Of a stretch of DNA of 64,000 bases, positions 715 through 18,720 are shown in pieces (the stretch's first letter is position 1; each line of letters starts with the position of its first letter). The notes under the pieces are model-generated. The model did no database searches and was not told the origin of the DNA. It saw only the letters and a list, made by a program, of their open reading frames with translations. This DNA is from Clostridiales bacterium (GTDB lineage: Bacteria > Bacillota > Clostridia > Oscillospirales > CAG-272). The stretch is from positions 14,646 to 78,645 of the forward strand of contig DPGD01000024.1 of assembly GCA_003522145.1 (NCBI GenBank). The letters run 5' to 3'. Both the position numbers and the translations under genes were made by a program.

Positions 715-1542
715 TTAGGTCAAAATACATTCGTATTCATTGATCTTATTAATTATATCTTGCTCGTACTTATCTATGTATTCTGCGATTGAACTACATT
801 CCATTATATCTAATGAGTCGCAATACATATTATTCTCTCGGCAATACTTCTGACAATCAATGATATTAAAGTGTTGCGGAGCTAAAACCATGATAACTTT
901 AAACTTCTGTTTTAGCAAATTAAGTTGTGCCACTGTTATTTTTGGAAAATAAGTTGAAACGAGATTAAATATACCTTTGCCTGCCAATTTGAAATAGTCT
1001 TCGTAATTGGCCACGATCAAGACACTCTTTTTATTGGTTTGGACAGCCAAATTGTATGAATACAAATGGTGTGAGCGTTCAAATGACTTGGAGTTCGGGT
1101 ATTTATATAACTGTTGTTTGTCTGTTATGAAAAAATCAAAGCACGCTACTTTACCATTTTCATCAATGGTAGGAATGATAATACTATTCCGCATCTTGTC
1201 ACAGTAATTGCCCCGGAATGATTTTAATACCAACTTGGCAATCTCTAATTGTGATAATGTGTGTTCCTTTTCTTTTGTCATATAATTGATGAAAGTATTG
1301 AAGGAGTTATCATGAAAACCGATCCTCAACTGAACGATTGTCTTGCCGAATATTCCCCACGAATGCAAAATGTCAATTGCAGATTTTGCTTTGGGATTGC
1401 TCTTTAGTTGTTGGTGATAATACATTGCCGCGTCCCGCATAAGTTCGGAGAGGCATTCTGCTTTGTCTGCATCTAAGTCGATTTCTGCAACAGAAGCCAA
1501 TTCTTGTATTGCAGATTTATAATCCAACTCTTTGGTTTTCAT
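715..1542 (-). CDS. DnaG-like primase homologue lacking the zinc finger, with apparently degenerate Toprim acidic residues
   Basis: 275 aa in a very AT-rich gene. By eye it aligns to the DnaG RNA-polymerase core: AIDILHSWGIFGKTIVQLRIGF ~ ALEYLxxRGxxxExIxxFxIGY; CDKMRNSIIIPTIDENGKVACF ~ FDRFRNRxMFPIxDxxGxVxAF; YKYPNSKSFERSHHLYSYN ~ PKYxNSPETxxFxKxxxLYN. Where DnaG has EGxxD the ORF has ANYED, and where DnaG has DxD it has APQ. Confidence 0.5.
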   Translation of the reverse strand: MKTKELDYKSAIQELASVAEIDLDADKAECLSELMRDAAMYYHQQLKSNPKAKSAIDILHSWGIFGKTIVQLRIGFHDNSFNTFINYMTKEKEHTLSQLEIAKLVLKSFRGNYCDKMRNSIIIPTIDENGKVACFDFFITDKQQLYKYPNSKSFERSHHLYSYNLAVQTNKKSVLIVANYEDYFKLAGKGIFNLVSTYFPKITVAQLNLLKQKFKVIMVLAPQHFNIIDCQKYCRENNMYCDSLDIMECSSIAEYIDKYEQDIINKINEYECILT

Positions 1543-1789
1543 AAGAAATGTTATAATCTTTCATGAAGTGATTGAGTCCTTTCTGTTGGATGGTTTGTGG
1601 TGATTCTATTTTAACAGAACTCAATCACTTTTTCTATACCTTTTTGCTTTTTTCTGTCTCACATCTATTGTAACACTACAAATTACAATTTTATTTTTAT
1701 ATAAGACTCTTGCTTTTTTTACGGTTATATGTTATGCTATATCTGAACAATCAATCAGTCAATTATAAGTGAGGAGTTTACACATATCT

Positions 1790-2383
1790 ATGAGGACAGA
1801 ACGTCAACATAATGACAGAAAAATAGAAATTATGGAAAAATGTTTTGATTGCTATGCCGAAAACGGCCTGTCCAGCACGGGAATCAAAACGCTTGCCAAG
1901 GAATGTGGCTGTACATCGGGAACGCTTTACATTTATTTCAAAAATCTGGACGAGCTGATCGTCGAATCAACGGCTCACTGCATGGCAAAGGTGGAGGACG
2001 ACTTCATGGCCAGATCGCCGAACAGCCCGACGGAGCTTATGCGCTTTATTGATGAAACTCCGTATTGGACGGCAGAAAAGCACGGGAAGAAATACCGCCT
2101 GATGTATCAGGTCTATACGCATCCGAAATACATAGAACACGGCAAAAAATTCTTTGACGGCGTAAACAAGCGTTACACCGAATATGCAAAGAGCCTTGAA
2201 GCAAAGCTTGGCATCCCGTGCGAGGTGCTGACGCCTCTCATCTTCATTCTCATCCGCGCCAGCGTTCATTACGCTATGTTTGAGGACGAATACTATCTGA
2301 AAAGCCAGCTTGACGTTTTGAAGCAAGGCTCGGCCATGTTTATACAAAAATACAAAGCCACGCAGGAAAGCCCGAAGGCATAA
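1790..2383 (+). CDS. TetR/AcrR family transcriptional regulator
   Basis: N-terminal HTH signature RKIEIMEKCFDCYAENGLSSTGIKTLAKECGCTSGTLYIYFKNLDELI. The ORF opens at 1769, but ATG 1790 follows GAGGAG. Confidence 0.85.
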   Translation: MRTERQHNDRKIEIMEKCFDCYAENGLSSTGIKTLAKECGCTSGTLYIYFKNLDELIVESTAHCMAKVEDDFMARSPNSPTELMRFIDETPYWTAEKHGKKYRLMYQVYTHPKYIEHGKKFFDGVNKRYTEYAKSLEAKLGIPCEVLTPLIFILIRASVHYAMFEDEYYLKSQLDVLKQGSAMFIQKYKATQESPKA

Positions 2384-2448: not shown

Positions 2449-2745
2449 ATGACAACCAACAAACTTTTTGAAGGCGAACGGCTTACACTCACCCTGTCGG
2501 GAAGGCTCGACACCAATTCGTCCCCCGCACTGGAGGCGGAGCTGAAGCAATCCGTCGGTGGGGTGAAGGAGCTGATTTTTGATTTTTCCGGCGTAGAATA
2601 CATCTCCTCTGCGGGGCTTCGCATCCTGCTGGCGGCGCAGAAGGTGATGAACCGCCAGGGCAGCATGAAGCTGATCGGCGTAAACGACGACGTTATGGAA
2701 GTATTTGAAATCACCGGCTTTTCCGACATTTTGACCATCGAATAA
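2449..2745 (+). CDS. STAS-domain anti-sigma-factor antagonist (SpoIIAA/RsbV-like)
   Basis: 98 aa. It carries the conserved phospho-serine context DFSGVEYISSAGLRILL and the C-terminal VFEITGFSDIL motif. Confidence 0.9.
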   Translation: MTTNKLFEGERLTLTLSGRLDTNSSPALEAELKQSVGGVKELIFDFSGVEYISSAGLRILLAAQKVMNRQGSMKLIGVNDDVMEVFEITGFSDILTIE

Positions 2746-2755
2746 GCGAGGAATT

Positions 2756-5191
2756 ATGAAAACTTTCTTTTTGCTCTCCGTCGTAGCGCTTTTGCCCGTG
2801 ATTTTGTCCGCGCTGATATACCTTGCGGAACGGACAAAAGCCATCCGCAAGCTTCCCTATGCCGTCAGGCAGCTCCTGATCGGAGTTCTGTTCGGCGGGC
2901 TTGCGATTCTCGGAACGGAATTTGGGATCAAAACCGACGGCGCCATCATCAACGCAAGAGACGCCTCGCCGATCTGCGCGGGACTTCTTTTCGGCGCGCC
3001 GGCAGGAATCATAGCGGGACTGATCGGCGGCGTGGAGCGGTGGTTCGCAGTTCTTTGGGGAGCCGGGCAATATACCCGTCTCGCCTGCAGCATTTCCACC
3101 GTGCTTGCGGGCGTTTTCGCGGCTGTCCTGCGGAAATTCATGTTTGATAACAAAAAGCCGAAATGGTATTACTGTCTTGCGACGGCAACCATTACGGAGG
3201 TCATCCATATGCTGATGATATTCCTTACGAACATGACCGACGCAAGAACCGCGTTTTCGTTTGTGCGAACCTGCTCGCTTCCCATGATTGCGGTCAACAG
3301 TCTTGCCGTGATGCTTGCGGGGCTTCTGCTTTCGATTCTTTCCGGAGCGGATCGTAAAAGCGAAAGGCGCGACCTGAAAAAAATTTCACAGTCGTTTCAG
3401 CGGTTTCTCCTGATCTGCGTTACGGCGGGCTTTCTCATGACAACGATTTTCACATGGGCGTTGCAGACGGAGCTTGCCAAAAACGAGGCAAACAACCTGG
3501 TAAAGCTGAACATCGAAGATGTAAAAGCGGATATTCTTGACGCTTCCAACCACAACCTCCTGTCCCTCACGGCCAAAATCGCCGAACGCATCCATACGGC
3601 GGACAAGGTGGATTACGCGCTGCTTTGCGCCCTCGGAAACGAATACGATGTAGCCGAAATCAACATCATCAATCCGCAAGGCATCATCGTGGAAACCACC
3701 TACGAAAAGTTTCGGAATTACGACATGCGCGGAGGCCATCAATCGGCGGAGTTTCTTGTCCTGCTTGACGGGGAAACCAAGGAATATGTTCAAAACTATC
3801 AGCCTACCTCGTCCAATCCGGCCATTTCCCGCAAATATGCGGGCATCGTGCTGGACGGCGGCGGCTTTGTGCAGGTGGCTTATGACGCGGAGCGCTTCCA
3901 AAAAGACATTGATGACATTGTCATCGGAGTCACGCGCAACCGCCACATCGGAGAAAACGGCAGTATAATCATCGCCGGCGAGGATTGGAACATCGTCAGC
4001 GACAGACACGGAAACGAAGGCAAAAACCTCGATGTTTCCGGCATTTACATAGACCGCCCTACCATGCCCGAGGACAAGTATTTTGACGCCGTTGTTTACG
4101 GCGAGAAATCGCTTTGCCGATATATCGTTTCCGAAGGCTACTACATCGTGGCCGCCATGCCTTACACGGAGGCGGTGTTCTCGCGCGACGTGTCGGTGTA
4201 TGTGACGGTGTTTATGGAATTTGTTGTTTTCGGAATGTTGTTCATCGTCGTTTATTTTCTCATCAAGAAGCTGGTCGTGGACAACATGGTGAAGATCAAC
4301 CAATCGCTGGCAAAGATCACCAGCGGCAACCTTGACACCGTCGTAAATGTAAGAACCAACGAAGAATTTGCTTCCCTTTCCGACGATATAAACTCAACCG
4401 TTCTGACGCTGAAGCGCTATATTGCGGAAGCGGCGGCGCGCATCGACAAAGAATTGGAATTTGCCAAGGCCATTCAACATTCCGCCATTCCGATGGTTTT
4501 CCCGCCGTATCCCGGCCACAGCGAATTTGACATATACGCAACCATGGACACCGCCAAAGAAGTGGGCGGCGACTTTTACGATTTCTATTTTGTCGGCGAA
4601 AACAAGCTCGGATTTCTTATCGCCGATGTTTCCGGCAAAGGGATTCCCGCCGCCATGTTTATGATGACGGCCAAAACCATCATAAAAGGCTATGCCGAGG
4701 CCGGCAGGGACGTAGACGAGGTCTTTACCGTCGCCAATGCCAAGCTGTGCGAATCCAACGAAGCCGGAATGTTTGTCACCGCATGGATGGGCATGCTGGA
4801 TATAACCACCGGAAGGGTTGAATTTGCCAACGCAGGCCACAACCCGCCGCTCGTAAGACATGCAGACGGAAGCTTTGAATTTCTGAAATCCAAGCCGGGC
4901 TTCATTCTTGCCGGAATGGAGGGGATGAAGTATCGCAAAAACGAGCTTGTCCTTTCGGCCGGCGACGAGATCTATCTCTATACCGACGGAGTTACGGAGG
5001 CGACAAACGCGAAAAACGAGCTTTACGGCGAAAAACGGCTGGTAAAGCTGCTGGATTCCCTGCACGGACTGACAAGCGAAGGAATTTGTCGTGCCGTCAA
5101 GGCAGACATAGACGCTTTTGTGGGAGACGCCCCGCAATTCGATGATATTACCATGCTGTATCTGAAATATAACGGAGGCTCTGAAAAATGA
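2756..5191 (+). CDS. Membrane sensor PP2C phosphatase (5TMR-LYT N-terminus, extracytoplasmic Cache-like domain, HAMP, SpoIIE/RsbU-type PP2C)
   Basis: 811 aa. The N-terminal multi-TM region contains the INARDASP/LytS-like motif, followed by a roughly 240-aa extracytoplasmic segment between TM helices. HAMP-like: INQSLAKITSGNLDTVVNVRTNEEFASLSDDIN. PP2C motifs: GGDFYDF, ADVSGKGIPAAMFM, YTDGVTEA, DDITMLY. Confidence 0.9.
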   Translation: MKTFFLLSVVALLPVILSALIYLAERTKAIRKLPYAVRQLLIGVLFGGLAILGTEFGIKTDGAIINARDASPICAGLLFGAPAGIIAGLIGGVERWFAVLWGAGQYTRLACSISTVLAGVFAAVLRKFMFDNKKPKWYYCLATATITEVIHMLMIFLTNMTDARTAFSFVRTCSLPMIAVNSLAVMLAGLLLSILSGADRKSERRDLKKISQSFQRFLLICVTAGFLMTTIFTWALQTELAKNEANNLVKLNIEDVKADILDASNHNLLSLTAKIAERIHTADKVDYALLCALGNEYDVAEINIINPQGIIVETTYEKFRNYDMRGGHQSAEFLVLLDGETKEYVQNYQPTSSNPAISRKYAGIVLDGGGFVQVAYDAERFQKDIDDIVIGVTRNRHIGENGSIIIAGEDWNIVSDRHGNEGKNLDVSGIYIDRPTMPEDKYFDAVVYGEKSLCRYIVSEGYYIVAAMPYTEAVFSRDVSVYVTVFMEFVVFGMLFIVVYFLIKKLVVDNMVKINQSLAKITSGNLDTVVNVRTNEEFASLSDDINSTVLTLKRYIAEAAARIDKELEFAKAIQHSAIPMVFPPYPGHSEFDIYATMDTAKEVGGDFYDFYFVGENKLGFLIADVSGKGIPAAMFMMTAKTIIKGYAEAGRDVDEVFTVANAKLCESNEAGMFVTAWMGMLDITTGRVEFANAGHNPPLVRHADGSFEFLKSKPGFILAGMEGMKYRKNELVLSAGDEIYLYTDGVTEATNAKNELYGEKRLVKLLDSLHGLTSEGICRAVKADIDAFVGDAPQFDDITMLYLKYNGGSEK

Positions 5192-5595
5192 AGGAATTGA
5201 CAATCCCCGCAACCGTTGAAAACATAGAAAAGGTAACCGAATTTGTAAACCGTCAGCTTCAGGAGATCCACTGCCCGAGCAAGGCGCAGATGCAGATTGA
5301 TATAGCGATTGACGAGCTTTTCGGCAACATCGCGCATTACGCATACAGGCCCGAAACAGGCCCCGCCACGGTGCGCGTGGAGGTAACGGAAGCGCCGATC
5401 TCCGTCATTGTCACCTTTATTGATCATGGGGTTCCCTACGATCCTCTGAAAAAGGACGATCCCGACATTACCCTGTCCGCAGACGAACGCGCCATTGGCG
5501 GGCTTGGCATTTTCATGGTCAAGAAAACCATGGACGAAATCACATACGAATATAAGGACGGTCAGAACATCCTTCGCATCCGAAAGGATCTTTGA
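5188..5595 (+). CDS. RsbW/SpoIIAB-like anti-sigma serine kinase (HATPase_c)
   Basis: 135 aa. The start overlaps the phosphatase stop (ATGA). N-box-like DELFGNIAHYAY, G-box-like GGLGIFMVKKTMDE. Confidence 0.85.
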   Translation: MKELTIPATVENIEKVTEFVNRQLQEIHCPSKAQMQIDIAIDELFGNIAHYAYRPETGPATVRVEVTEAPISVIVTFIDHGVPYDPLKKDDPDITLSADERAIGGLGIFMVKKTMDEITYEYKDGQNILRIRKDL

Positions 5596-5638
5596 AGCCG
5601 TTTGGAGCCGATTGAAATTTTATAAACGAGGTAAAGGT

Positions 5639-6115
5639 ATGAGCCAACCGATATTCCGCCAAAAAAGTATGGAAAAAATCTCTTCCCCGGAGCAGATGAA
5701 CGATTACATCCGCGTGTCAAACCCAAGTGTATGGATGATCCTTGCCGCCGTTATCGTACTGCTGGCAGGCGTATGCGTGTGGGGAATGTTCGGATGTCTT
5801 GACACCTCCTTTCAAACGGGCGGCGTCTGCCGGGACGGCTGTCTGACCGTTTATGTCAAGGAAGCCGACTTTGCCAAAATCAAAGGAAAAGCCATTCTTT
5901 CGGTTGACGGCTCGGAGCTTTCGCTGTCCGATCTGCCAGGCTCTCCCGTTCGGCTCGATGACAGTGCCGATCCGTATCTTCTTCATCTCATAGGCGCTTC
6001 GGCGGGCGATTGGGTATATGTTCTGACAGTCGATGCCAAAGACATGAAAAGCGGCACGTTCTCCGTTTCGGTCATTACCGAGCGCGTCAAGCCGCTCGAC
6101 TTTGTGCTGAACTGA
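5639..6115 (+). CDS. Short HlyD-like NHLM/NHLP-type bacteriocin secretion protein (158 aa)
   Basis: ATG at 5639 follows GAGGTAAAGGT. The N-terminal FRQKSMEKISSPEQMNDYIRVSNPSVWMIL + TM helix is the signature opening of HlyD-type adaptors of NHLM bacteriocin exporters (TIGR03794-like, from memory). The protein is far shorter than canonical adaptors. Confidence 0.6.
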   Translation: MSQPIFRQKSMEKISSPEQMNDYIRVSNPSVWMILAAVIVLLAGVCVWGMFGCLDTSFQTGGVCRDGCLTVYVKEADFAKIKGKAILSVDGSELSLSDLPGSPVRLDDSADPYLLHLIGASAGDWVYVLTVDAKDMKSGTFSVSVITERVKPLDFVLN

Positions 6116-6124
6116 GGTGCGGAC

Positions 6125-8305
6125 ATGAAGGCAACCAAAAAAATCAAAGCGCCCCTGACAAAGGGCGTGGCCAAAGTGCCCGTGATCATGCAGATGGAAG
6201 CGCTGGAATGCGGCGCCGCAAGCCTTGCCATGATCCTTGCCTATTATGAAAAATGGATCCCGCTGGAGCAGGTGCGTCTTGACTGCGGCGTTTCGCGCGA
6301 CGGCTCCAACGCAAGAAATCTTCTCCGGGCCGCCCGAAGCTACGGCCTTGCGGCCAAGGGCTATCGCTATGAACCCGAAACCCTGAAAAAAGAGGGGAAA
6401 TTCCCCTGCATTATCCATTGGAATTTCAATCATTTTGTGGTTCTTGACGGCTTCAAGGGCAACAAAGCGGTGTTAAACGATCCCGCAAAGGGCACCTATA
6501 CTGTCCCTATGAGCGTTTTTGACGACTCGTTTACAGGGGTATGCCTGTTTTTTGAGCCGGACGAAGGCTTTGTGCCGGAGGGCAAGCCGCAGTCCATGCT
6601 GAAATATGCGCAAAAACGGCTTGTCGGCGCAAGCACCGCCATTGTATTCGTCGTTCTGACCTCTATGATCACATCCCTGCTCGGCATGATCACGCCGGCG
6701 TTTTCGCGCATCTTTCTTGACCGACTGCTGACAAAAGAAAACCCGGAATGGCTCACGCCGTTTACGATTGCACTTGTGGGAATAAGCGTCATTCAGCTTA
6801 TCGTTGCATGGATCCAGGCCATCTATTCTCTCCGCATCAACGGAAAGCTCGCCATGGTGGGAAACACAACCTTTATGTGGAAAATCCTGCGCATGCCCAT
6901 GGAATTTTTTTCTCAGCGCATGGCAGGCGATCTTCAGGGCAGACAAGCGTCGAACGCCATGATAGCGGAGCGGCTGGTCAACATGTTTGCGCCGCTCGCG
7001 CTCAACGCCGCTATGATGGTGTTTTATCTCGTGGTCATGCTCCGATACAGCGTCGTACTGACGATGATAGGGCTTTTTTCGGTGATTGCCAACCTGGCCC
7101 TTTCGGGAATTATTTCAAGAAAGCGCATCAATATCACCCGCGTGCAAATGCGCGACGCCGGCAAGCTGGCGGGAACCACGGTCGCCGGCATAGAAATGAT
7201 TGAAACCATCAAGGCCAGCGGCGCCGAAAACGGCTTTTTTGAAAAATGGGCCGGCTATCAGGCAAGCGTCAATACAAATCAGGTTCGGTATCAGCGCACC
7301 AATCTGCTTCTTGAGCTACTGCCGGCTCTGATAAGCGCCCTTTGCGGAACGGCCGTGCTGATGACAGGCGTTTTCCTGGCGATGGAAGGTCTGTTTACCG
7401 TCGGTATGATCATGGCGTTTCAGGGCTTTCTTTCGTCGTTCGTTTCCCCCGCAATGTCGCTGATTTCCGCGGGGCAATCGCTCCAGGAAATGCGCACCGA
7501 TATGGAACGGATTGAGGATGTTATGAAATATCCCGCCGACGTGACCTTTGCCGAGCACGAGGAGGAGGCTGTCGAATACGACAAGCTGGCCGGAAACATC
7601 GAAATCAAAAATATAACCTTCGGGTATTCCCGCCTGGCGGAGCCTTTGATTCAGGATTTCAGCATGACCTTGACGCCGGGAAGCCGCATTGCTTTTGTCG
7701 GGCCGTCCGGGTGCGGAAAGTCCACCCTCTCAAAGCTCATATCCGGACTTTACAAGCCTTGGAGCGGCGAAATCCTGTTTGACGGCAAGCCTTTGTCGGA
7801 AATTGATCGCAGCGTGTTTACAGGCTCCCTTGCCGTGGTGGATCAGGATATTATCCTGTTTGAAGATACGATTGCCAACAACATTAAAATGTGGGATAAC
7901 TCCATTGAAGACTTTGAAATGATCATGGCGGCGCGCGACGCGCAGCTTCACGAGGATATTATGCAGCGCGAAGGCGGCTATCAGTACCGGCTGACCGAGG
8001 GCGGAAAGGATTTTTCCGGCGGGCAGAGACAGCGCATGGAGATTGCGCGCGTGCTCGCGCAGGATCCCACGATCATCCTTCTTGACGAGGCGACAAGTGC
8101 GCTGGACGCCAAAACCGAATACGACGTGGTGAAATCCATCAAAGACAGGGGCATCACCTGTATTGTGGTGGCGCACAGACTTTCCACCATACGCGATTGT
8201 GACGAGATTATTGTAATGGATCAGGGAAAAGTCATTGAGCGCGGAACACACGAGGAGCTGATGAAACAAGGCGGAGCTTATACTCAGCTCGTATCAAACG
8301 AGTAA
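6125..8305 (+). CDS. Bacteriocin ABC exporter with N-terminal C39 peptidase domain (NHLM ABC1-type)
   Basis: 726 aa. C39 motif QMEALECGAASLAMILAYY (catalytic Cys about aa 29) and HWNFNHFVVL; six-TM permease region; Walker A GPSGCGKST, signature FSGGQRQR, Walker B ILLDEATSALD. Confidence 0.92.
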   Translation: MKATKKIKAPLTKGVAKVPVIMQMEALECGAASLAMILAYYEKWIPLEQVRLDCGVSRDGSNARNLLRAARSYGLAAKGYRYEPETLKKEGKFPCIIHWNFNHFVVLDGFKGNKAVLNDPAKGTYTVPMSVFDDSFTGVCLFFEPDEGFVPEGKPQSMLKYAQKRLVGASTAIVFVVLTSMITSLLGMITPAFSRIFLDRLLTKENPEWLTPFTIALVGISVIQLIVAWIQAIYSLRINGKLAMVGNTTFMWKILRMPMEFFSQRMAGDLQGRQASNAMIAERLVNMFAPLALNAAMMVFYLVVMLRYSVVLTMIGLFSVIANLALSGIISRKRINITRVQMRDAGKLAGTTVAGIEMIETIKASGAENGFFEKWAGYQASVNTNQVRYQRTNLLLELLPALISALCGTAVLMTGVFLAMEGLFTVGMIMAFQGFLSSFVSPAMSLISAGQSLQEMRTDMERIEDVMKYPADVTFAEHEEEAVEYDKLAGNIEIKNITFGYSRLAEPLIQDFSMTLTPGSRIAFVGPSGCGKSTLSKLISGLYKPWSGEILFDGKPLSEIDRSVFTGSLAVVDQDIILFEDTIANNIKMWDNSIEDFEMIMAARDAQLHEDIMQREGGYQYRLTEGGKDFSGGQRQRMEIARVLAQDPTIILLDEATSALDAKTEYDVVKSIKDRGITCIVVAHRLSTIRDCDEIIVMDQGKVIERGTHEELMKQGGAYTQLVSNE

Positions 8306-8319
8306 GGGGGCGGATCGAT

Positions 8320-10521
8320 ATGGGTTGGTTTGACGAACAAATCAGAGATCGCAAGCATAACGACGACGAGGCTTTTGCCGAAGCCTTTGCCAATATGGCC
8401 TCTGCCATCACCGGCAAAAAAATCGAAGCCTCCTTAAACAACGACCGCGCTGTTACCAAAGACGCCATCGACGAAATTCTGAAATATTATCATGTAAAGA
8501 GCCGCGAGGTGCCGGACGAAATCGGCGACATAAACGAACAGCTTGAATATCTCATGCGCCCTTTCGGCATTATGCGACGCCCGATCCGGCTGGAGGACGG
8601 CTGGTATCGTGACGCAATCGGCGCCATGCTCGGCGTGCTGCGCGAAAGCGGAAGGGTGGTGGCGCTGATTCCCACAGGGCTTTCCGGGTACAGCTATTTT
8701 GATTACGAAGTCGGCAAACGAAGAAAAATCAATCGCAAAAATCAGCACCTGTTTGAAATGGAAGCCATTGCGTTTTACAAGCCCTTTCCGCTGAAAAAAA
8801 TCAGCCTGCCGTCGCTGGCCGCATATATCATGCGGACGCTTTCGGCCTCCGATTTTGTGATGATCGCCCTGGCCACGCTTGCTCTATCGCTGATCGGCAT
8901 GATTTCCCCGATGATCAGCAAGCTCCTGTTTGCTCGTGTGCTTCCGTCGGGAAGCATGCGCCTGCTTATCGCCATTACGGTCTTCTCCGTGTCCGTTTCG
9001 ATCAGCACGCTTCTCTTTTCCGCCGTGAAAAAGCTGATCATGGCCCGGATCGAAACCAAGCTGAACATATCGGTTGACGCAGCCGCCATGATGCGCGTCC
9101 TGTCGCTCCCGGCCGATTTCTTCAAGTCGTACAGCGCAGGCGAGCTTTCAAACCGTGTGTCTCAGGTCGGTGTGCTTTGCAAAATGCTGGCGTCCACCGT
9201 CCTGTCTACGGGACTGACTTCCCTTTTCTCGCTCCTATACCTATCGCAGATATTTGTCTACGCGCCGGCTCTTGTCGCTCCCGCGCTGATAATTATTCTT
9301 GTAACCGTTGTATTTTCCATCCTGTCGTCGCTCATTCAGATGAAAATAAGCATACGTCAGATGGAGCTTTCCGGCAAAGAAGACGGTATGACCTATGCTC
9401 TCATTTCGGGCATACAAAAGATTAAGCTGGCCGGCGCCGAAAAACGCGCCTTTGCAAGATGGGGCAATCTTTATGCCGAAAGCGCAAGGCTTACCTACAA
9501 TCCGCCGATGTTTATCAAGCTCAACACCGTCATCAGCCTTGCCATAAGCCTTGCGGGAACGATCATCATGTACGTCATGGCGGTAAAATCGGGCATTTCC
9601 GTGGCCGATTATTACGCCTTCGGCACGGCATACGGCATGGTGTCCGGCGCATTTACGGCGCTGGCCGGAATCGCGCTCACCGTGGCGCAGATAAAGCCCA
9701 TCCTCCATATGGTAAAACCGTTTTTTGATACCGCACCTGAAGTTTCAGACGGAAAACAGGTGATCACAAGGCTGTCCGGCGGAATTGAACTGAGCAATGT
9801 TTCGTTCCGATACAGCGAAAACATGCCCCTGGTGGTAGACGATATGTCGCTTAAAATACGTCCCGGACAATATGTTGCCATCGTCGGGAAAACGGGCTGC
9901 GGAAAGTCAACGCTTATGCGTCTGCTGCTCGGCTTTGAGCATCCGCAAAAAGGCGCCATCTATTATGACGGGAGAGATCTGGAACGAATTGACCTCCGCT
10001 CTCTGCGGCGTCGGATCGGTTCCGTTATGCAAAACGGGAAGCTGTTCCAGGGCGATATTTATTCCAATATCGTCATTTCCGCACCGTGGCTGTCCCCAAA
10101 CGAAGCATGGGAAGCGGCGGAGCTTGCGGGAATTGCCGAGGATATAAGAAAAATGCCCATGGGGATGAGCACGATCATCTCCGAAGGCTCGGGCGGCATC
10201 TCCGGCGGACAGCGCCAGCGGCTGATGATTGCTCGCGCCATCGCGCCAAAGCCCAGAATCCTTATGTTTGACGAGGCGACAAGCGCGCTGGACAATCTCA
10301 CGCAGAAAAAGATCTCCGAAGCGCTCGACTCATTGAAATGCACCAGAATCGTAATTGCGCACCGGCTTTCGACCATCAAGCAGTGCGACAGGATCCTCGT
10401 GCTGGATCACGGAAAGATCATCGAAGACGGCAAATATGACGAGCTGATTGCAAAGAACGGCTTCTTTGCGGAGCTTGTCGCTCGGCAGAGGCTTGACGGC
10501 GCTCCCAAAGCCGATTTCTAA
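8320..10521 (+). CDS. Second bacteriocin ABC exporter permease/ATPase without peptidase domain (NHLM ABC2-type)
   Basis: 733 aa. It has a non-peptidase N-terminal domain of about 150 aa, a TM region, Walker A GKTGCGKST, signature ISGGQRQR, and Walker B LMFDEATSALD. Confidence 0.9.
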   Translation: MGWFDEQIRDRKHNDDEAFAEAFANMASAITGKKIEASLNNDRAVTKDAIDEILKYYHVKSREVPDEIGDINEQLEYLMRPFGIMRRPIRLEDGWYRDAIGAMLGVLRESGRVVALIPTGLSGYSYFDYEVGKRRKINRKNQHLFEMEAIAFYKPFPLKKISLPSLAAYIMRTLSASDFVMIALATLALSLIGMISPMISKLLFARVLPSGSMRLLIAITVFSVSVSISTLLFSAVKKLIMARIETKLNISVDAAAMMRVLSLPADFFKSYSAGELSNRVSQVGVLCKMLASTVLSTGLTSLFSLLYLSQIFVYAPALVAPALIIILVTVVFSILSSLIQMKISIRQMELSGKEDGMTYALISGIQKIKLAGAEKRAFARWGNLYAESARLTYNPPMFIKLNTVISLAISLAGTIIMYVMAVKSGISVADYYAFGTAYGMVSGAFTALAGIALTVAQIKPILHMVKPFFDTAPEVSDGKQVITRLSGGIELSNVSFRYSENMPLVVDDMSLKIRPGQYVAIVGKTGCGKSTLMRLLLGFEHPQKGAIYYDGRDLERIDLRSLRRRIGSVMQNGKLFQGDIYSNIVISAPWLSPNEAWEAAELAGIAEDIRKMPMGMSTIISEGSGGISGGQRQRLMIARAIAPKPRILMFDEATSALDNLTQKKISEALDSLKCTRIVIAHRLSTIKQCDRILVLDHGKIIEDGKYDELIAKNGFFAELVARQRLDGAPKADF

Positions 10522-10606
10522 CGCAAAAAACTTCAAAAATTTTTTCAGATTTTTATTAGCCTTTTTTTCTTTTGGATCGTATAAATCAACAGAAGGAGGA
10601 AGTAAA

Positions 10607-10843
10607 GTGATAGGCATAAGAGCAGGGCAACAAGACAGATTGCCCGAAATCAGCGAAAAAACGCTTTCGGCGCTGTTTGATTATCAATTGTTTGAAAACG
10701 AGCCTTCGCTCCGAAAACTCATAGATGAAGTGGAAAACGAATACGGTGCCGAAATTTCAGAGGATGACCTCTCGCTTGTCAGTGCGGCGGGCGAAACGGA
10801 ATCTTCCGAAAAGCGCAAAGGCAAAATGGACGGTACTCTATGA
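10607..10843 (+). CDS. Small acidic protein of unknown function, translationally coupled to the sigma factor
   Basis: GTG at 10607 lies 7 nt after AGGAGGA (10594-10600). The 78-aa ORF's stop overlaps the sigma gene ATG (ATGA at 10840-10843). The segment YGAEISEDDLSLVSAAG resembles the Nif11/double-glycine leader end of the downstream precursors. Confidence 0.45.
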   Translation: MIGIRAGQQDRLPEISEKTLSALFDYQLFENEPSLRKLIDEVENEYGAEISEDDLSLVSAAGETESSEKRKGKMDGTL

Positions 10844-11325
10844 GCCTTGCAACGGAAAAGGAAGCGCTGTATACGGAATACCACGACAAGGTAAGCCATT
10901 ATGTTTTCTGCAGACTGCAAAACAAAAGCGACGCAGAAGACATTGTCAGCGAAATCTTCCTGAAAGTTTACGAACATTTCGATACATTTGACGCAAGTCT
11001 TGCTTCCGTTTCCACATGGATTTATACGATCACACGGAACACCGTAACGGATTATTTCAGGTCAAACCGCATCTATGCGGAATTGCCGGAGGAGTTATCG
11101 GACGGAGACGACATCGATTGCGTTGTTTTACAAAAAGAATCTCTTGCGGCGCTCGGAAAAGCGCTCGGCAAGCTTGACGAGCGCCGCTGCGCCCTTGTGA
11201 TTTTAAAGTATTACAAGAAAATGTCTCTGAAAGATATAGCGGCAAGAATGGGCATATCGTATGCCTATGTAAAAATTCTGCACAAAAGTGCGCTGAACAA
11301 ACTTAAAAATGATCTGAGCGGTTGA
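10840..11325 (+). CDS. Sigma-70 family (ECF-like, two-domain) RNA polymerase sigma factor
   Basis: 161 aa. Region 2: DAEDIVSEIFLKVYEHFDTFD...STWIYTITRNTVTDYFR. Region 4 HTH: MSLKDIAARMGISYAYVKILHKSALNKLK. Confidence 0.9.
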   Translation: MSLATEKEALYTEYHDKVSHYVFCRLQNKSDAEDIVSEIFLKVYEHFDTFDASLASVSTWIYTITRNTVTDYFRSNRIYAELPEELSDGDDIDCVVLQKESLAALGKALGKLDERRCALVILKYYKKMSLKDIAARMGISYAYVKILHKSALNKLKNDLSG

Positions 11326-11358: not shown

Positions 11359-11544
11359 ATGAAAGAACAGAAGGAAAAAATCAAAACCGACAAAGCGGAG
11401 CTGAATGAAAACGAGCTTGAAAAAGTAGACGGCGGCATGAAAGTAATAATCATCGGCGACGGAAAGATGGGGATGTGCGAAAGATGCGGCATATATGCCT
11501 ATATCGTTGACGGGCTTTGCGAAAAATGCAGAAAAAATAAGTGA
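11359..11544 (+). CDS. Precursor peptide P1: short double-glycine leader + 35-aa core with CxxCG-x9-CxxC
   Basis: AGGAGG RBS. Leader MKEQKEKIKTDKAELNENELEKVDGG, core MKVIIIGDGKMGMCERCGIYAYIVDGLCEKCRKNK (4 Cys). Confidence 0.75.
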   Translation: MKEQKEKIKTDKAELNENELEKVDGGMKVIIIGDGKMGMCERCGIYAYIVDGLCEKCRKNK

Positions 11545-11568
11545 CCGAGAAGAATAAAATACACGGCT

Positions 11569-11841
11569 ATGGAAAAAAACAAAAAGCTTACAAAAGCAAA
11601 TGCGGACGAATTATCCGATAAAAAACTTGAAAATGTTTCGGGCGGCACCGAAATCACGGACAATGAGAGCATTAAGATAAACAACAATAATTTTGACACA
11701 AGTATAAATTTCAATAATTTTGACACGAGCATCAAAATAAACAACAATAATGTTGATATGAGCATAAAGCATAGCAACGATATGAATAAAAACATTCTGC
11801 TAAACAACGATTCAGATATGAAAATACTGAAAAACAACTGA
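11569..11841 (+). CDS. Precursor peptide P2: short double-glycine leader + 64-aa Asn-rich, Cys-free repeat core
   Basis: Leader MEKNKKLTKANADELSDKKLENVSGG. The core contains IKINNNNFDTSINFNNFDTSIKINNNNVDMSIKH and has AT-rich coding DNA. Confidence 0.6.
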   Translation: MEKNKKLTKANADELSDKKLENVSGGTEITDNESIKINNNNFDTSINFNNFDTSIKINNNNVDMSIKHSNDMNKNILLNNDSDMKILKNN

Positions 11842-11894
11842 AAAGCGCTGTTATCCCGCCCAAAAACTTTTATGAATAAGGAGACGACAAGAAA

Positions 11895-12311
11895 ATGAAC
11901 ACCGAACTTATCGCCAAGGCAAAGGAAGCGAAATCCCCCGAAGAACTGATGGCTCTTGCAAAAGAAAACGGCATGGAACTGACCGAAGAAGCAGCAAGTA
12001 CATATTTTAATCAGCTCAACCCAAAAATGGGCGAGCTTGCAGATGACGAGCTTGACAATGTTGCCGGCGGCGGCTGCTACTCAAGCGGCGGACGTCTAAA
12101 AACTACCTGCGGATATAAATGCAAGCATTATCAAGACGGGCCTTCAACTTATGGTGTAAAAGGCACCTGCTGCAGATGCAGATACTGGGGCGTCGATCCT
12201 AACGCTATAAGCGCTTCTCTTTGGACAACGGTTTTAGAGTTGATCGTAAAAGCGGCTGAGGCGGCTGAACCTCGTGAGTGCTACCATCCCGCCAACAGTA
12301 AAAAGGGCTGA
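11895..12311 (+). CDS. Precursor peptide P3: Nif11-type leader + ~78-aa core (7 Cys)
   Basis: Leader MNTELIAKAKEAKSPEELMALAKENGMELTEEAASTYFNQLNPKMGELADDELDNVAGGG, followed by CYSSGGRLKTTCGYKCKHYQDGPSTYGVKGTCCRCRYWG... Confidence 0.85.
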   Translation: MNTELIAKAKEAKSPEELMALAKENGMELTEEAASTYFNQLNPKMGELADDELDNVAGGGCYSSGGRLKTTCGYKCKHYQDGPSTYGVKGTCCRCRYWGVDPNAISASLWTTVLELIVKAAEAAEPRECYHPANSKKG

Positions 12312-12370
12312 TTGGTACAAAAATTTGCACATTTAATTAAACAAATAAAAAACATCAAAGGAGCATCGCA

Positions 12371-12610
12371 ATGAAAATGAACAATGAACTTATCGCAAAA
12401 GCAAAACAGGCAAAAAACCCCGAAGAGCTTCTGGCTCTTGCAAAAGAAAACGGCGTTGAACTGACGGAAGAAAGCGCAAAGGCGTATTTCAATCAGCTCA
12501 ATCCCAAAACAGGCGAGCTTGCCGACGACGAGCTTGACAATGTCGCCGGCGGCGGCTGCCAGCAGAACAACGGTCATCTTGATAAATACAAGGATTTCAA
12601 CAACATTTGA
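12371..12610 (+). CDS. Precursor peptide P4: Nif11-type leader + very short core (1 Cys)
   Basis: The leader is near-identical to P3/P5. The core after GG(G) is only CQQNNGHLDKYKDFNNI. Confidence 0.7.
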   Translation: MKMNNELIAKAKQAKNPEELLALAKENGVELTEESAKAYFNQLNPKTGELADDELDNVAGGGCQQNNGHLDKYKDFNNI

Positions 12611-12661
12611 TTTTTTCCCGCACAACAAACATCTGAAAAATTTATTATGATAGGAGTTTTT

Positions 12662-13045
12662 ATGAAAAAGGATCTTTTAGTGAAAGCAAAACAAGCAAAA
12701 ACCCCTGAAGAATTGATGTCCTTCGCAAAGGAAAACAACATTGAACTGACCGAAGAGAGCGCAAAGGCGTACTTTGAACAGCTCAACCCCAAAACGGGCG
12801 AGCTTGCAGATGACGAGCTTGACAATGTTGCCGGCGGCGGATGCCATAACGGCGGCAGGCTTGTCGTTTCCGTAATGCATTACTGCGATGAATGGCGTTG
12901 CAAGGATGACGGCTCCCAATGCGATATAGACGGCGTACTGGTAAACTGCAACACCTGCAAGGTCGCCGCATACTGCTTTTCGTGCAAGTACTGTACCTAC
13001 GAAAAAGGGCTCTGGCTCTGCAATAACCCCGTTAACATGAAATAA
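12662..13045 (+). CDS. Precursor peptide P5: Nif11-type leader + ~68-aa core (10 Cys), paralogue of P8
   Basis: ATG 12662 after TAGGAG. Core GCHNGGRLVVSVMHYCDEWRCKDDGSQCDIDGVLVNCNTCKVAAYCFSCKYCTYEKGLWLCNNPVNMK. Confidence 0.85.
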   Translation: MKKDLLVKAKQAKTPEELMSFAKENNIELTEESAKAYFEQLNPKTGELADDELDNVAGGGCHNGGRLVVSVMHYCDEWRCKDDGSQCDIDGVLVNCNTCKVAAYCFSCKYCTYEKGLWLCNNPVNMK

Positions 13046-13071
13046 ACCTACTCAAACAAGGAGATTTTACC

Positions 13072-13485
13072 ATGGACAATAAATTTACACCCGAACTTAT
13101 TGAAAAAGCCAAAGAAGCGAAAACCCCCGAAGAATTGTTCGCTCTTGCAAAAGAAAACGGCGTTGAACTGACCGAAGAGAGCGCAGCGTCGTATTTTGAC
13201 CGGCTGAACCCCAAAACAGGTGAGCTTTCCGACAGTGAGCTTGATAATGTATCCGGCGGCGGTTGCCTCAGTGATGACCCCTACGATACTTGTATGGCGG
13301 ACGGCTACTGTTTGTCCGACTATGTATGCAGCCGTTGCGGCACAAGGGGTATTGACCATAGCACCGGCGTGTTGCGTTGTTCCGGATGTTTTGCAAGCGA
13401 CCCCCGCTGTCGGAACTGTAGGAACAGTATTGGGGATAAGAGCGATTCGGTATTAAAATGCAAGGTTCATCCGAGACCCTGCTAA
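13072..13485 (+). CDS. Precursor peptide P6: Nif11-type leader + ~75-aa core (11 Cys)
   Basis: The core GCLSDDPYDTCMADGYCLSDYVCSRCGTRGIDHSTGVLRCSGCFASDPRCRNCRNSIGDKSDSVLKCKVHPRPC contains CxxCG-x12-CxxC. Confidence 0.85.
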   Translation: MDNKFTPELIEKAKEAKTPEELFALAKENGVELTEESAASYFDRLNPKTGELSDSELDNVSGGGCLSDDPYDTCMADGYCLSDYVCSRCGTRGIDHSTGVLRCSGCFASDPRCRNCRNSIGDKSDSVLKCKVHPRPC

Positions 13486-13519
13486 AGAATATTTTAAATT
13501 GTACAGAGAGGATTCAAAG

Positions 13520-13915
13520 ATGGAAATGAACAAAGAATTGCTTGCAAAAGCAAAAGAAATGAAAACTCCCGAAGAACTCATGGCTCTCGCAAAAGAAAGC
13601 GGCATTGAAATGACAAAAGAAAAAGCGGATGAGTATTTTAAGCAGCTTAGCACAAGCTCCGGCGAGATATCCGATGAGGAACTCGATAATGTTTCCGGCG
13701 GCTGTGGCGGCGGATATGTTGCCGGCAGACCCCATCCTCAATTCGGCGTTGGTGAATCCGTTCTTTATATTTGCGGCTGGTTGGGAGGAGACAGGATAAC
13801 CGCGTCCGCCAAGGTCGTGAAGAGAAGCTATGAAAACGACGCATGGTATTATACCCTGAAAATACATGACGGAAGTGAAATAACGCTAAGCGAGTCGTAT
13901 GTAATAAAGAGCTGA
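13520..13915 (+). CDS. Precursor peptide P7: Nif11-type leader + ~70-aa Cys-poor, beta-rich core (2 Cys)
   Basis: ATG 13520 was chosen by alignment with P4 (MEMNKELLAKAK vs MKMNNELIAKAK). Core CGGGYVAGRPHPQFGVGESVLYICGWLGGDRITASAKVVKRSYENDAWYYTLKIHDGSEITLSESYVIKS. Confidence 0.75.
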   Translation: MEMNKELLAKAKEMKTPEELMALAKESGIEMTKEKADEYFKQLSTSSGEISDEELDNVSGGCGGGYVAGRPHPQFGVGESVLYICGWLGGDRITASAKVVKRSYENDAWYYTLKIHDGSEITLSESYVIKS

Positions 13916-13961
13916 GAACAAGACAGCTTTTACAAAATAAATTTGAGGCAAGGAGATTTTT

Positions 13962-14351
13962 ATGCAAAACAATCAAGAGCTTTTCGCAAAAGCAAAGGAA
14001 GCAAAAACCCCCGAGGAGCTGTTGTCTCTCGCGAAAGAAAACGGCATTGAAATGACCGATGAGAGCGCAAACGCATATTTTGAAATCATACATCCGAAAG
14101 CCGGCGAGCTTGCAGACGACGAGCTTGACAATGTATCCGGCGGCGGATGTCGCAAGAGTGACGGAAGACTTGTAGTTTCCGCCGGCTATTCATGCGGATA
14201 TTGGGAATGCAACAAATGCGGAGTGAAATGGAAAAATGCCGGTTACGGTACTTTTAAGTGCAGTAGGTGCGGAAAATCATCACATTGCAATAACTGCTAC
14301 TGGTGCTCATATGAAAAAGGGCTTTGGCTTTGCAATAACAAGGACAAATGA
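13962..14351 (+). CDS. Precursor peptide P8: Nif11-type leader + ~67-aa core (10 Cys), paralogue of P5
   Basis: Core GCRKSDGRLVVSAGYSCGYWECNKCGVKWKNAGYGTFKCSRCGKSSHCNNCYWCSYEKGLWLCNNKDK. It shares GRLVVS and C-x2-C-x5-C-x2-C-x2-C-x9-C / YEKGLWLCNN with P5. Confidence 0.85.
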   Translation: MQNNQELFAKAKEAKTPEELLSLAKENGIEMTDESANAYFEIIHPKAGELADDELDNVSGGGCRKSDGRLVVSAGYSCGYWECNKCGVKWKNAGYGTFKCSRCGKSSHCNNCYWCSYEKGLWLCNNKDK

Positions 14352-15751: not shown

Positions 15752-15773
15752 TATAAAGAAAGGACTCACGAAC

Positions 15774-15980
15774 ATGGATAACAAAAACAACGAAACAAAG
15801 GAATACATCCTCACGGAAGAAGAACTGAAAGCCGTTTCCGGCGGCAAATCGTCACAAGTCCCCGGTATTAACTGTCCGCGTTGCGGCAAATTTATTCCGA
15901 CAACCATTACGGATTTACTGGTCCAACCTCGTATCAGATGCCCGTACTGTTTGTTGATACTGAATATCAATCAGAAATAA
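15774..15980 (+). CDS. Precursor peptide P9: short double-glycine leader + 44-aa core with CxxCG-x17-CxxC
   Basis: ATG 15774 (the track ORF opens earlier, at 15714, overlapping the rSAM gene). Leader MDNKNNETKEYILTEEELKAVSGG, core KSSQVPGINCPRCGKFIPTTITDLLVQPRIRCPYCLLILNINQK. Confidence 0.7.
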   Translation: MDNKNNETKEYILTEEELKAVSGGKSSQVPGINCPRCGKFIPTTITDLLVQPRIRCPYCLLILNINQK

Positions 15981-18129: not shown

Positions 18130-18720
18130 TCAGGCAGTTGCCTTCATTTTGAGAAGCTGTACCGCTTCGGGCAGAATGTGCTTGCCGTCCACGCGCTCCT
18201 TGGCAAGGAAGCCGACCATACCGTTGCCTGCAAAGAGTTCCTTGAGTTCTGCAAAGGAACGAGTGCCACGGTCACCGATGTTGTAGTAGGAAAAGTCACC
18301 GAATGCGACAGCCGCACCACCGGCAGCAGGCACCGGGAAGTAAGGAGAGGTGTAAATTTTGTATCCAAGGCAAGTGCCGGGTTCCCCTGCCTGAAGGGGC
18401 GGCTGCCAGAGATACTGGCCGTTCTTGTCCTTGAGTTTGCGAAGAGCAGCCACACACTTGTCATTGGTGAGGAATGCGGCATTCTTGCGGTAAGGACGCT
18501 TGAGGGAGTAGATGAGGTCGATAATCTCATCTGCGGTTACCTCGGATTCGGATGCAGTAACAACACCGACCTGTGCGCCACCGTTGGCGGCAAGCAGACC
18601 GAGGGGCTGACCGACACCCGTGCCGTTGATGAATGCATCCTCCTCGGCATTGGCGAGTGCCTTACCGAACTGCTTGAGGATGTAGCTTTCAAGATTGAAG
18701 GCATTGTCATAAAGTGTCAT
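18130..18720 (-). pseudogene. HK97-family major capsid protein, C-terminal half only
   Basis: 196 aa containing EEDAFINGTGVGQPLGLL...YRKNAAFLTNDKCVAALRKLKDKNGQYLWQP...GYKIYTSPYFP. Full-length capsids are about twice this size. The N-terminal half, plus the protease, portal and terminase genes, are absent. Confidence 0.8.

Follow-up and report, generated by a model that had tools for sequence, protein, structure and literature searches.

A partner-switching gene set linked to a RiPP exporter operon in gut Clostridia, and a nearby ECF sigma factor that probably has a partner of its own

The 64,000-nt stretch of contig DPGD01000024.1 from a Clostridiales bacterium that we analysed here (the window, whose numbering is used throughout) carries between about 1.7 and 15.8 kb a gene cluster for peptides that are made on ribosomes and modified after translation (RiPPs), all listed genes of which lie on the plus strand. 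Within it, three genes of the partner-switching kind, encoding a STAS protein, a membrane phosphatase of the PP2C type and an RsbW-like kinase (together, the triad), are followed by the genes of an NHLP-type peptide exporter, then by a gene for an extracytoplasmic function (ECF) sigma factor, eight precursor genes and a radical SAM maturase gene (Table 1). A first-pass annotation of this sequence had proposed that the triad governs the ECF sigma factor, with the kinase as its anti-sigma factor. The spacings given there are exact: a gap of 10 nt separates the STAS and phosphatase genes, the phosphatase and kinase genes share a 4-nt ATGA overlap, and 43 nt (5596–5638) lie between the kinase gene and the next gene, for a short HlyD-like protein. 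The sigma gene, there called the only one nearby, is also the only one that we found among the open reading frames (ORFs) tested across the 64 kb. The placement of the genes stood as well, save that too little weight had been given to an ORF of 78 amino acids (aa) that is translationally coupled to the sigma gene. The TetR-family gene that heads the cluster is listed as an ORF from a GTG at 1769, and the ATG used in Table 1 is its likelier start.

Table 1. Genes and predicted elements of the cluster in the window, followed by neighbouring features and by related genes at other loci (L numbers).
Feature	Position	Strand	Basis or remark
Predicted sigmaA-type promoter	1710..1738	+	upstream alignment across lineages
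TetR-family regulator, first operon gene in this lineage	1790..2383	+	PF00440 1.8e-7
STAS protein, single-domain, anti-anti-sigma type	2449..2745	+	PF01740 4e-16; TIGR00377 68.6 vs cut-off 53.45
Membrane sensor phosphatase, 811 aa	2756..5191	+	5TM-5TMR_LYT 3e-30; SpoIIE/PP2C PF07228 9e-51
RsbW-like GHKL serine kinase, 135 aa	5188..5595	+	HATPase_c_2 PF13581 3.5e-22
Short HlyD-like protein, 158 aa, membrane-anchored, NHLP exporter accessory	5639..6115	+	TIGR03794 part match
ABC1, NHLP-type exporter subunit 1 (C39 peptidase, permease and ATPase; PCAT)	6125..8305	+	TIGR03796
ABC2, NHLP-type exporter subunit 2 (permease and ATPase)	8320..10521	+	TIGR03797
Predicted ECF-type promoter	10557..10582	+	motif conservation across sigma-bearing lineages
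78-aa ORF	10607..10843	+	acidic helical protein, no family match
ECF-type sigma factor, two-domain (regions 2 and 4), 161 aa	10840..11325	+	TIGR02937; Sigma70_r2 2.6e-18; r4 1.2e-10
Eight precursor genes, GG-type or Nif11-like leaders, Cys-rich cores	11359..14351	+	translations
Radical SAM/SPASM peptide maturase	14366..15751	+	Radical_SAM 2.9e-15; SPASM 3.7e-7
Small ORF past the radical SAM gene	15714..15980		GG-type leader EELKAVSGG; two CxxC pairs
DnaG-type primase core, upstream of cluster	715..1542	-	
Truncated phage capsid gene, downstream of cluster	18130..18720	-	Phage_capsid profile positions 87-279
MatE-kinase gene, L050	5807..7585		C-terminal RsbW-like HATPase_c_2
MatE-kinase gene, L119	7591..9360	-	C-terminal RsbW-like HATPase_c_2
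STAS-APH fusion gene, L014	13192..14364		
STAS-APH fusion gene, L017	12463..13641		
STAS-APH fusion gene, L030	2868..4052		
STAS-APH fusion gene, L018	8835..9962		
78-aa family copy, L001	17873..18109		
78-aa family copy, L050	14375..14611		
78-aa family copy, L166	9798..10004		
78-aa family copy, L168	9811..9999		

Judged from their domains and motifs, the three triad proteins are an intact partner-switching set. Ser54 of the STAS protein, in the motif YISSAGL, aligns with the serine of RsbV in YMDSTGL (6m36_B), which bears out the earlier choice of this motif as the phospho-acceptor and makes Ser54 the predicted phosphorylation site. The solved relatives of the STAS protein include RsbV (6m36_B) and chains of MlaB (7ch8_K, 1.3e-6; 6xbd_K, 3.8e-3), and it also resembles SpoIIAA; its match to the MlaB model NF033618 (6.8e-7, 29.6 bits) falls far under the 90-bit family cut-off. 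In the kinase, the N-box DELFGN and the motifs DHG and GGLG are present, and these intact ATP-binding motifs predict an active GHKL serine kinase. Its best solved relative is RsbW (6m36_A, 2.4e-5), and it scores 33–37 bits against the NCBIfam equivalog models for RsbW and SpoIIAB, whose cut-offs are 135–155.

Four regions can be told apart in the phosphatase: a 5TMR-LYT region (about residues 1–200), a double-Cache region (about 210–475), a transmembrane and HAMP-like coiled-coil region (about 475–576) and the PP2C domain (about 590–806). The aspartate motifs of the PP2C domain (GGDFYD, DVSGKG, TDG and FDD) do not vary among 36 homologues with 37–55% identity, and D606, D609, D624, D744, D796 and D797 are kept in all 36. 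In a confident AlphaFold model of the protein (pLDDT 88), the stretch between the membrane segments forms a long helix and then two alpha/beta modules. Foldseek searches with this model matched the PP2C domain to 3ke6 (the top match, Rv1364c), 6k4e and 5ucg, that is, to the domains of Rv1364c/RsbU, SiaA and SpoIIE, and matched the extracytoplasmic part to 6iot, 4xmr and 6mni, the ligand-binding domains of Mlp24, Tlp3 and PscC; the extracytoplasmic domain is accordingly modelled as a predicted double-Cache. The domain string 5TMR-LYT/Cache/HAMP/PP2C of the first-pass annotation is right overall, with the qualification that the Cache part comes from structure prediction alone, no Pfam Cache family matching the phosphatase even at E ≤ 10, and that the HAMP match is marginal in Pfam (E = 0.055). 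The family to which the phosphatase belongs numbers 94,315 representatives at E ≤ 0.001, and in many homologues the kinase domain is fused to the phosphatase in a protein of about 945 aa.

Comparison with other genomes indicated that the triad keeps company with the exporter. A phosphatase profile run against species-representative genomes gave 80 loci (30–64% identity), a metagenome scan with the HlyD-like protein gave 80 more, and the context of homologues of the sigma factor and the 78-aa protein added 5; exporter lineages were defined as clusters of ABC1 at 95% identity. Orthologous loci with 81–99% phosphatase identity retain the arrangement of the window, in which the triad is co-directional with the exporter genes and upstream of them, and altogether the triad adjoins the genes for the HlyD-like protein, ABC1 and ABC2 in at least 14 exporter lineages spanning 57–100% ABC1 identity. 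Its position among these lineages varies. A PP2C–kinase fusion gene and a STAS gene are convergent with TetR and exporter genes in L012; the triad is split around the exporter in L048, which has YcaO and LanM maturases, and again in L050, where the genes run dCache PP2C, kinase, sigma, radical SAM, precursors, exporter, STAS; one gene stands between the phosphatase and kinase genes and the exporter in L064; and in L119 the triad is divergent from the exporter and its kinase forms one protein with a MatE transporter. Because several gene orders and strands are represented, the adjacency of triad and exporter is more than inherited synteny. The maturases encoded nearby differ as well, being of the radical SAM type in the window and of the YcaO and LanM types in L048. 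Taken together, these comparisons place the link of the triad with the exporter, and not with a particular maturase or sigma factor, and the linkage to RiPP exporters in other genomes, on which the first-pass annotation had staked its proposal, is there in these 14 or more lineages. Among the 80 loci of the phosphatase family, most have a STAS gene, a kinase gene or both beside the phosphatase gene and have no exporter; an exporter is present in 4, namely L012, L048, L050 and L064.

Two variants of the triad met in this comparison join its parts to other proteins. The MatE transporters of L050 and L119 carry a C-terminal RsbW-like HATPase_c_2 domain, a second kinase domain that is physically tethered to the transporter, and in these RiPP exporter clusters their genes are neighbours of those for PP2C and STAS. 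In the closest relatives outside RiPP clusters, the PP2C–kinase fusion of about 945 aa precedes a STAS protein and then a fusion of a STAS domain to an APH-type phosphotransferase (STAS–APH; Table 1). In this conserved module, which appears to be previously undescribed, the STAS domain is wired to an enzyme, such that its output would be enzymatic and not exerted via a sigma factor.

The triad and the exporter are very probably co-transcribed, as had been proposed, since terminator hairpins are lacking between them, the spacers are short in orthologous loci and a predicted sigmaA-type promoter is conserved upstream. Specifically, we found no G+C-rich hairpin followed by a T-run in either 5596–5638 or 10522–10606, and the spacer between the kinase and HlyD-like genes, 43 nt in the window, measures 11–70 nt in orthologous loci and is free of hairpins. 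A scan for consensus promoters and terminators returned nothing in both key spacers, and the same scan missed both of the promoters that were later found by comparison. The sigmaA-type promoter predicted for the window consists of a -35 element TTGCTT (1710–1715), a 17-nt spacer and an extended -10 element TGT-TATGCT with its hexamer at 1733–1738, and alignment across lineages reveals a conserved upstream element that resembles TTGnnT-N17-TATACT and often has an upstream TG. In lineages that have no TetR gene (L125, L146, L158, L162 and L166) this element lies directly 5' of the STAS gene; in the window, L088 and L003 it lies 5' of the TetR gene. TetR orthologues precede the STAS gene in L003–L005 and the L088 group, and in L012 a TetR gene abuts the exporter. 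A unit composed of promoter, TetR gene (where present), STAS, phosphatase, kinase, HlyD-like, ABC1 and ABC2 genes is well supported by this comparative evidence. As to an independent promoter between the modules, one is predicted between the exporter and the sigma gene and none between the triad and the exporter. We note that a conserved segment, AACAATCAATCA...TTATAAG, occupies 1740–1768, past the sigmaA-type promoter and ahead of the start of TetR, with equivalents in L088 and L003; it could be a TetR operator, which would place the operon of triad and exporter under TetR autorepression.

To what extent the triad and the sigma gene travel together can be read from their presence and absence among exporter lineages. 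Both are present in 11 lineages; three lineages have the triad and certainly no sigma gene (the L003 group, L012 and L048, with L162 a probable fourth), and three have the sigma gene and no triad (the L103 group, L130/L170 and L167). These counts match what would be expected of two independent accessory modules that are gained and lost separately. The sigma-less L003 group is nested among lineages that have both modules (90% ABC1 identity), and the nearest relative of the triad-less L103 group is L119 (92%), which itself has a variant triad. The ratios dN/dS for the STAS, phosphatase and kinase genes are 0.03–0.11 wherever dS could be estimated, L162 included, dS being saturated for L003. Kinase identity to the window is 84–89% for L003 and L162, the latter only probably sigma-less, against 86–91% in sigma-bearing lineages, which suggests that the kinase is equally conserved with and without the sigma factor. 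L162 and L165 had been candidates for certainly sigma-less lineages and were dropped as such: their contigs end about 1 kb past ABC2, and L168 shows that precursor genes can precede the sigma gene. Genes of the sigma-70 family occur within 10 kb of the phosphatase relative at only 2 of the 80 loci, namely L050 (ECF type) and L018 (convergent, group 3). No sigma gene adjoins the kinase gene of the window, the sole sigma gene of which, of the ECF type, lies 5 kb downstream behind the three exporter genes.

The sigma factor itself scores 95.9 against TIGR02937 (cut-off 42.9), consists of regions 2 and 4 only, and has RpoE (2q1z), SigW and SigL as its best solved relatives. The 78-aa ORF that precedes it has a GTG start behind an AAGGAGG ribosome-binding site and overlaps the sigma start by ATGA. 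Its product, which matches no Pfam or NCBIfam family and is modelled by AlphaFold as a helical bundle at low confidence (pLDDT 70), belongs to a family with 204 database members and invariant A60, A61 and G62. The ORF and the sigma gene occur together in about 48 loci, and the pairing is near-obligate: L167 is the only locus with the sigma gene and no 78-aa ORF, L137 has the ORF (frameshifted and near a contig end) with no detectable sigma gene, and L050 has a distant copy. From this translational coupling and co-inheritance, the 78-aa protein is probably a regulator of the sigma factor, and a candidate anti-sigma factor. The spacer between ABC2 and the sigma gene in L167 (9722–10001) contains tandem repeats of about 45 nt (GAAAGGCAGGCAGATGCAGAAAGAAC...) and no precursor genes follow; L167 may be a decaying cluster.

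About 25 nt 5' of the 78-aa ORF lies the motif TAGCC-N16-CGTAT(A/C)AA, with an A/T-rich stretch 5' of it. The core TAGCC-N16-CGTAT occurs a single time across the 64 kb of the window, where chance would give 0.11 matches. The motif is kept between ABC2 and the 78-aa ORF in all sigma-bearing lineages while its flanks diverge, and it recurs in this position at more than 40 loci that have the sigma gene; it is absent from the sigma-less loci examined (L003–5, L106, L116, L012 and L048). In L168 it precedes precursor genes that sit ahead of the small ORF and the sigma gene. We take its CGTAT to be a -10 element, by its resemblance to those of ECF promoters. The proposal that the sigma factor drives the precursor and radical SAM genes is plausible in this light, a conserved predicted ECF-type promoter heading the unit only in sigma-bearing lineages, and the sigma factor probably autoregulates its unit positively with the 78-aa protein as its regulator.

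Gene identities, intact catalytic motifs, synteny, patterns of presence and absence and conserved promoter-like motifs lead us to a reading of the locus as two transcription units with two independent regulators, the output of the partner switch not passing through the cluster's sigma factor, and we put the probability of this reading at about one half. The first unit would start at the predicted sigmaA-type promoter and comprise the genes for TetR, STAS, phosphatase, kinase, the HlyD-like protein, ABC1 (a peptidase-containing ATP-binding cassette transporter, PCAT) and ABC2. The kinase would phosphorylate Ser54 of the STAS protein, and the phosphatase, with its 5TMR-LYT and double-Cache regions facing the membrane and the outside, would remove the phosphate in response to an envelope or extracellular cue, possibly the mature peptide itself; the unphosphorylated STAS protein, or the kinase that it displaces, would then act on a target other than a sigma factor. 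The second unit would start at the predicted ECF-type promoter and comprise the 78-aa protein, the ECF sigma factor, the eight precursors and the radical SAM maturase, with the sigma factor activating its own unit under the control of the 78-aa partner and not of the kinase. We favour a non-sigma output for the switch because the triad and the sigma gene are inherited independently, because the sigma factor has a partner and a promoter of its own, and because of the contexts in which the phosphatase family occurs.

Several observations weigh against this reading. L050, alone among the loci, places its ECF-type sigma gene directly behind the kinase gene, at a distance of 23 nt and in the classical rsbW–sigB order, and from this locus an interaction of kinase and sigma factor is possible in some lineages. 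Both modules are present in 11 of the 17 lineages scored for both, and cross-talk is possible wherever they coexist. The frequent fusion of kinase to phosphatase had been considered as an argument against an anti-sigma role and is weakened by the identity of the top structural match, 3ke6, which is Rv1364c, a fused RsbU–RsbW; being such a fusion, Rv1364c indicates that fusion does not preclude anti-sigma activity, and in M. tuberculosis it reportedly acts on SigF. Since no terminator was found 3' of ABC2 in the window, transcription may read through into the sigma unit; weak hairpins follow ABC2 in some lineages (L001, L103), none of them a canonical G+C-rich stem with a T-run. The most plausible target of the switch, the co-encoded exporter or processing machinery, is suggested by gene linkage and analogy only. 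Finally, both promoters are predictions, and the transcription start sites, the sensed signal, the switch target and the role of the 78-aa protein are what we infer.

The alternative that survives best, unlikely as we hold it to be, is the circuit of the first-pass annotation, in which the kinase would serve the cluster's ECF sigma factor as its anti-sigma factor: the phosphatase, activated by a signal, would dephosphorylate the STAS protein, which would capture the kinase and so free the sigma factor to transcribe the precursor and radical SAM genes, the 78-aa protein perhaps serving as a second input. The L050 gene order and the 11 lineages with both modules in one cluster speak for such a circuit, every part of the switch is intact, and the sigma factor plausibly drives the precursor genes from the conserved ECF-type promoter. 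Its central step, sequestration of the ECF-like sigma factor by the kinase, is nonetheless not supported. The triad persists where the sigma gene is missing, under purifying selection that extends to the probably sigma-less L162, and the sigma gene occurs where the triad is missing; the sigma factor has its own near-obligate and translationally coupled partner; and relatives of the phosphatase are almost never found near a sigma gene. In addition, GHKL anti-sigma factors, as in the SpoIIAB–sigmaF structure (1L0O), take hold of domain 3 of the sigma factor, which is missing from the two-domain sigma factor of the window.

A further reading, in our view doubtful, is a two-layer elaboration in which the phospho-switch gates the exporter post-translationally and the 78-aa protein is an anti-sigma factor that mimics a precursor leader; the two layers would tie peptide production to export in a way that is new for RiPPs. 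In the first layer the unphosphorylated STAS protein would dock on the PCAT exporter, on a peptide or membrane cue perceived by the 5TMR-LYT/dCache phosphatase, in the way that MlaB docks on MlaF. MlaB, also a single-domain STAS protein, binds the ATPase of the Mla ABC transporter, which it modulates, and is a detectable relative of the window STAS protein, yet this likeness is generic to STAS domains, and an interaction of the window STAS protein with an NHLP exporter is a proposal only; as far as we know, no kinase/phosphatase pair controls MlaB. The second layer starts from a double-glycine-leader look-alike within the 78-aa protein, AEISEDDLSLVSAAG, in which the segment AEISEDDLSLVSAA-G matches GELADDELDNVAGG-G of the precursors at the hydrophobic -12, -7 and -4 positions, the family of about 200 members having an invariant Ala-Ala-Gly in place of Gly-Gly. 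With Ala-Ala where cleavage needs Gly-Gly, the 78-aa protein could be captured uncut by the C39 or C39-like domains of the exporter, which would free the sigma factor according to exporter occupancy, a logic that resembles that of FlgM and BtrA, in which an anti-sigma factor is handled by a secretion apparatus.

It is also conceivable, though improbable, that the kinase is a true anti-sigma factor whose sigma factor is encoded at some other place in the genome; the triad would then set the transcription of the exporter operon, or of genes that lie outside the cluster, and hitch-hike with the exporter genes. In favour of such an arrangement are the kinase's best solved relative, RsbW, and the likeness of the STAS protein to RsbV and SpoIIAA, and some clusters with a triad have no sigma gene of their own, as would be expected of it. 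The operon is, however, headed by a predicted promoter of the sigmaA type and not of an alternative-sigma type, no group-3 sigma gene was found among the ORFs tested in the 64-kb window and only one was found among the 80 loci of phosphatase relatives (the convergent one of L018), and the fusions of STAS to an enzyme and of kinase to a transporter within the family point to outputs other than sigma factors. A triad with no functional connection to the RiPP system, such as a general envelope-stress sensor that came to lie upstream of the exporter by chance in one clade, is very improbable: the family is huge and most of its 80 loci have no exporter nearby, but the association recurs across gene orders, strands, RiPP classes and 57–100% exporter identity, with spacers of 11–70 nt to the exporter genes and one conserved promoter.

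With a two-unit organisation as the preferred reading, the closest described design is, by analogy, the Bordetella btr locus. There, BtrU (PP2C), BtrW (kinase) and BtrV (STAS) control type III secretion, and not the sigma factor, by a mechanism that is not known, alongside the ECF sigma factor BtrS and a secreted anti-sigma factor, BtrA, that is coupled to the secretion apparatus (PMC7498569, PMC8256260). The window and btr share a PP2C/kinase/STAS set, a secretion system, an ECF sigma factor and a separate small antagonist of that sigma factor, which in the window is putative. They differ in that btr belongs to a Gram-negative type III secretion system and the window to a Gram-positive peptidase-containing RiPP ABC exporter, in that the window phosphatase is a membrane sensor with 5TMR-LYT and dCache regions, and in that BtrA is a secreted anti-sigma factor whereas the 78-aa protein is only a putative sigma antagonist; the likeness is one of gene set. 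RsbU/RsbV/RsbW–SigB and SpoIIE/SpoIIAA/SpoIIAB–SigF of B. subtilis have in common with the window a STAS protein with a conserved phospho-site serine, predicted as such in the window, a GHKL serine kinase and a PP2C phosphatase. In these classical systems, however, a group-3 sigma gene follows the kinase gene, whereas the sigma factor of the window is of the ECF type, is encoded 5 kb off and has its own predicted promoter and partner.

Partner switches with outputs other than a sigma factor have been described. In SiaABCD of P. aeruginosa and SypE/SypA of V. fischeri, a phosphatase and a kinase set the phosphorylation state of a STAS or STAS-like protein (SiaC, SypA) that acts on an enzyme or on an unknown target (PMC8256260, PMC8457831), and in Anabaena HenR/All4160 a partner-switching-like module regulates a biosynthetic enzyme (bioRxiv 10.64898/2026.04.08.717354). 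The PP2C domain of SiaA ranks among the top matches of the window phosphatase, both by structure and in NCBIfam, and SypE is a kinase–phosphatase fusion of the sort that is common in the family of that phosphatase. The outputs of the Sia, Syp and All4160 systems are a diguanylate cyclase or polysaccharide synthesis, whereas the function linked to the window triad is RiPP export or production.

Clusters for RiPPs and bacteriocins are usually described with two-component systems, quorum-sensing peptides or dedicated sigma/anti-sigma pairs. Lantibiotic clusters, for example, are autoinduced by the two-component systems NisRK and SpaRK, in which a His-Asp phosphorelay leads to a DNA-binding regulator. 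The window resembles these in that its bacteriocin cluster includes a membrane sensor, which could detect the mature peptide and tune production, export or immunity accordingly; it differs in having a serine phospho-switch and no identified DNA-binding output. Full-text literature searches found no earlier description of partner switching in RiPP or bacteriocin clusters. All of the parts are of known kinds, and what appears to be new is the conserved presence of partner-switching genes within the NHLP-type RiPP exporter operons that gut Clostridia carry and, in addition, a leader-like partner of an ECF sigma factor. A Ser/Thr partner-switching set in an exporter operon, found across gut Clostridia and RiPP classes, would add a type of regulator to those known for such clusters, and would join Bordetella as an instance of partner switchers tied to a secretion machine and not to a sigma factor. 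The clusters come from abundant Ruminococcus-like species of the human gut, and their expression may need an extracellular cue, a point of relevance to genome mining; the predicted ECF promoter and its sigma factor would offer a handle for heterologous activation of the precursor/maturase unit.

The remaining genes of the cluster are those of a two-subunit NHLP-type system and its substrates. ABC1 scores 939.7 against TIGR03796 (cut-off 853.3) and contains a Peptidase_C39 domain (2e-34); ABC2 scores 736.7 against TIGR03797 (cut-off 709.4), and no C39 peptidase domain is detectable in its N-terminal domain. The HlyD-like protein matches TIGR03794 over positions 1–51 of 421 only (5.5e-9, 35.4 against a cut-off of 156.2) and so falls short of a full-length match, and this short form is conserved directly upstream of ABC1 in related Clostridia loci. 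The loci L001 and L002, whose phosphatases are identical, differ in that L001 has the HlyD-like gene (12877–13353) and L002 has none, its kinase gene being followed by ABC1 (12840–12877); the HlyD-like accessory protein may be dispensable, or recently deleted, in L002. The eight precursor ORFs carry the motif ...ELDNV(A/S)GG and are separated by intergenic gaps of 24–59 nt, and one of them, at 11895–12311, matches the Nif11-leader model TIGR03798 (7.7e-7) with a score of 29.3, slightly under the cut-off of 32.3. The extra small ORF past the radical SAM gene looks like an additional precursor outside the main array.

Phosphatases 81% identical to that of the window carry the source name Ruminococcus sp., and related contigs come mostly from human-gut metagenomes. 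The cluster lies between a DnaG-type primase core and a truncated phage capsid gene, and the G+C content of the first 2 kb of the window is 38%, against about 50% elsewhere; these features suggest that the RiPP cluster is flanked by remnants of mobile elements. In L133, a triad-less cluster adjoins recombinase genes.

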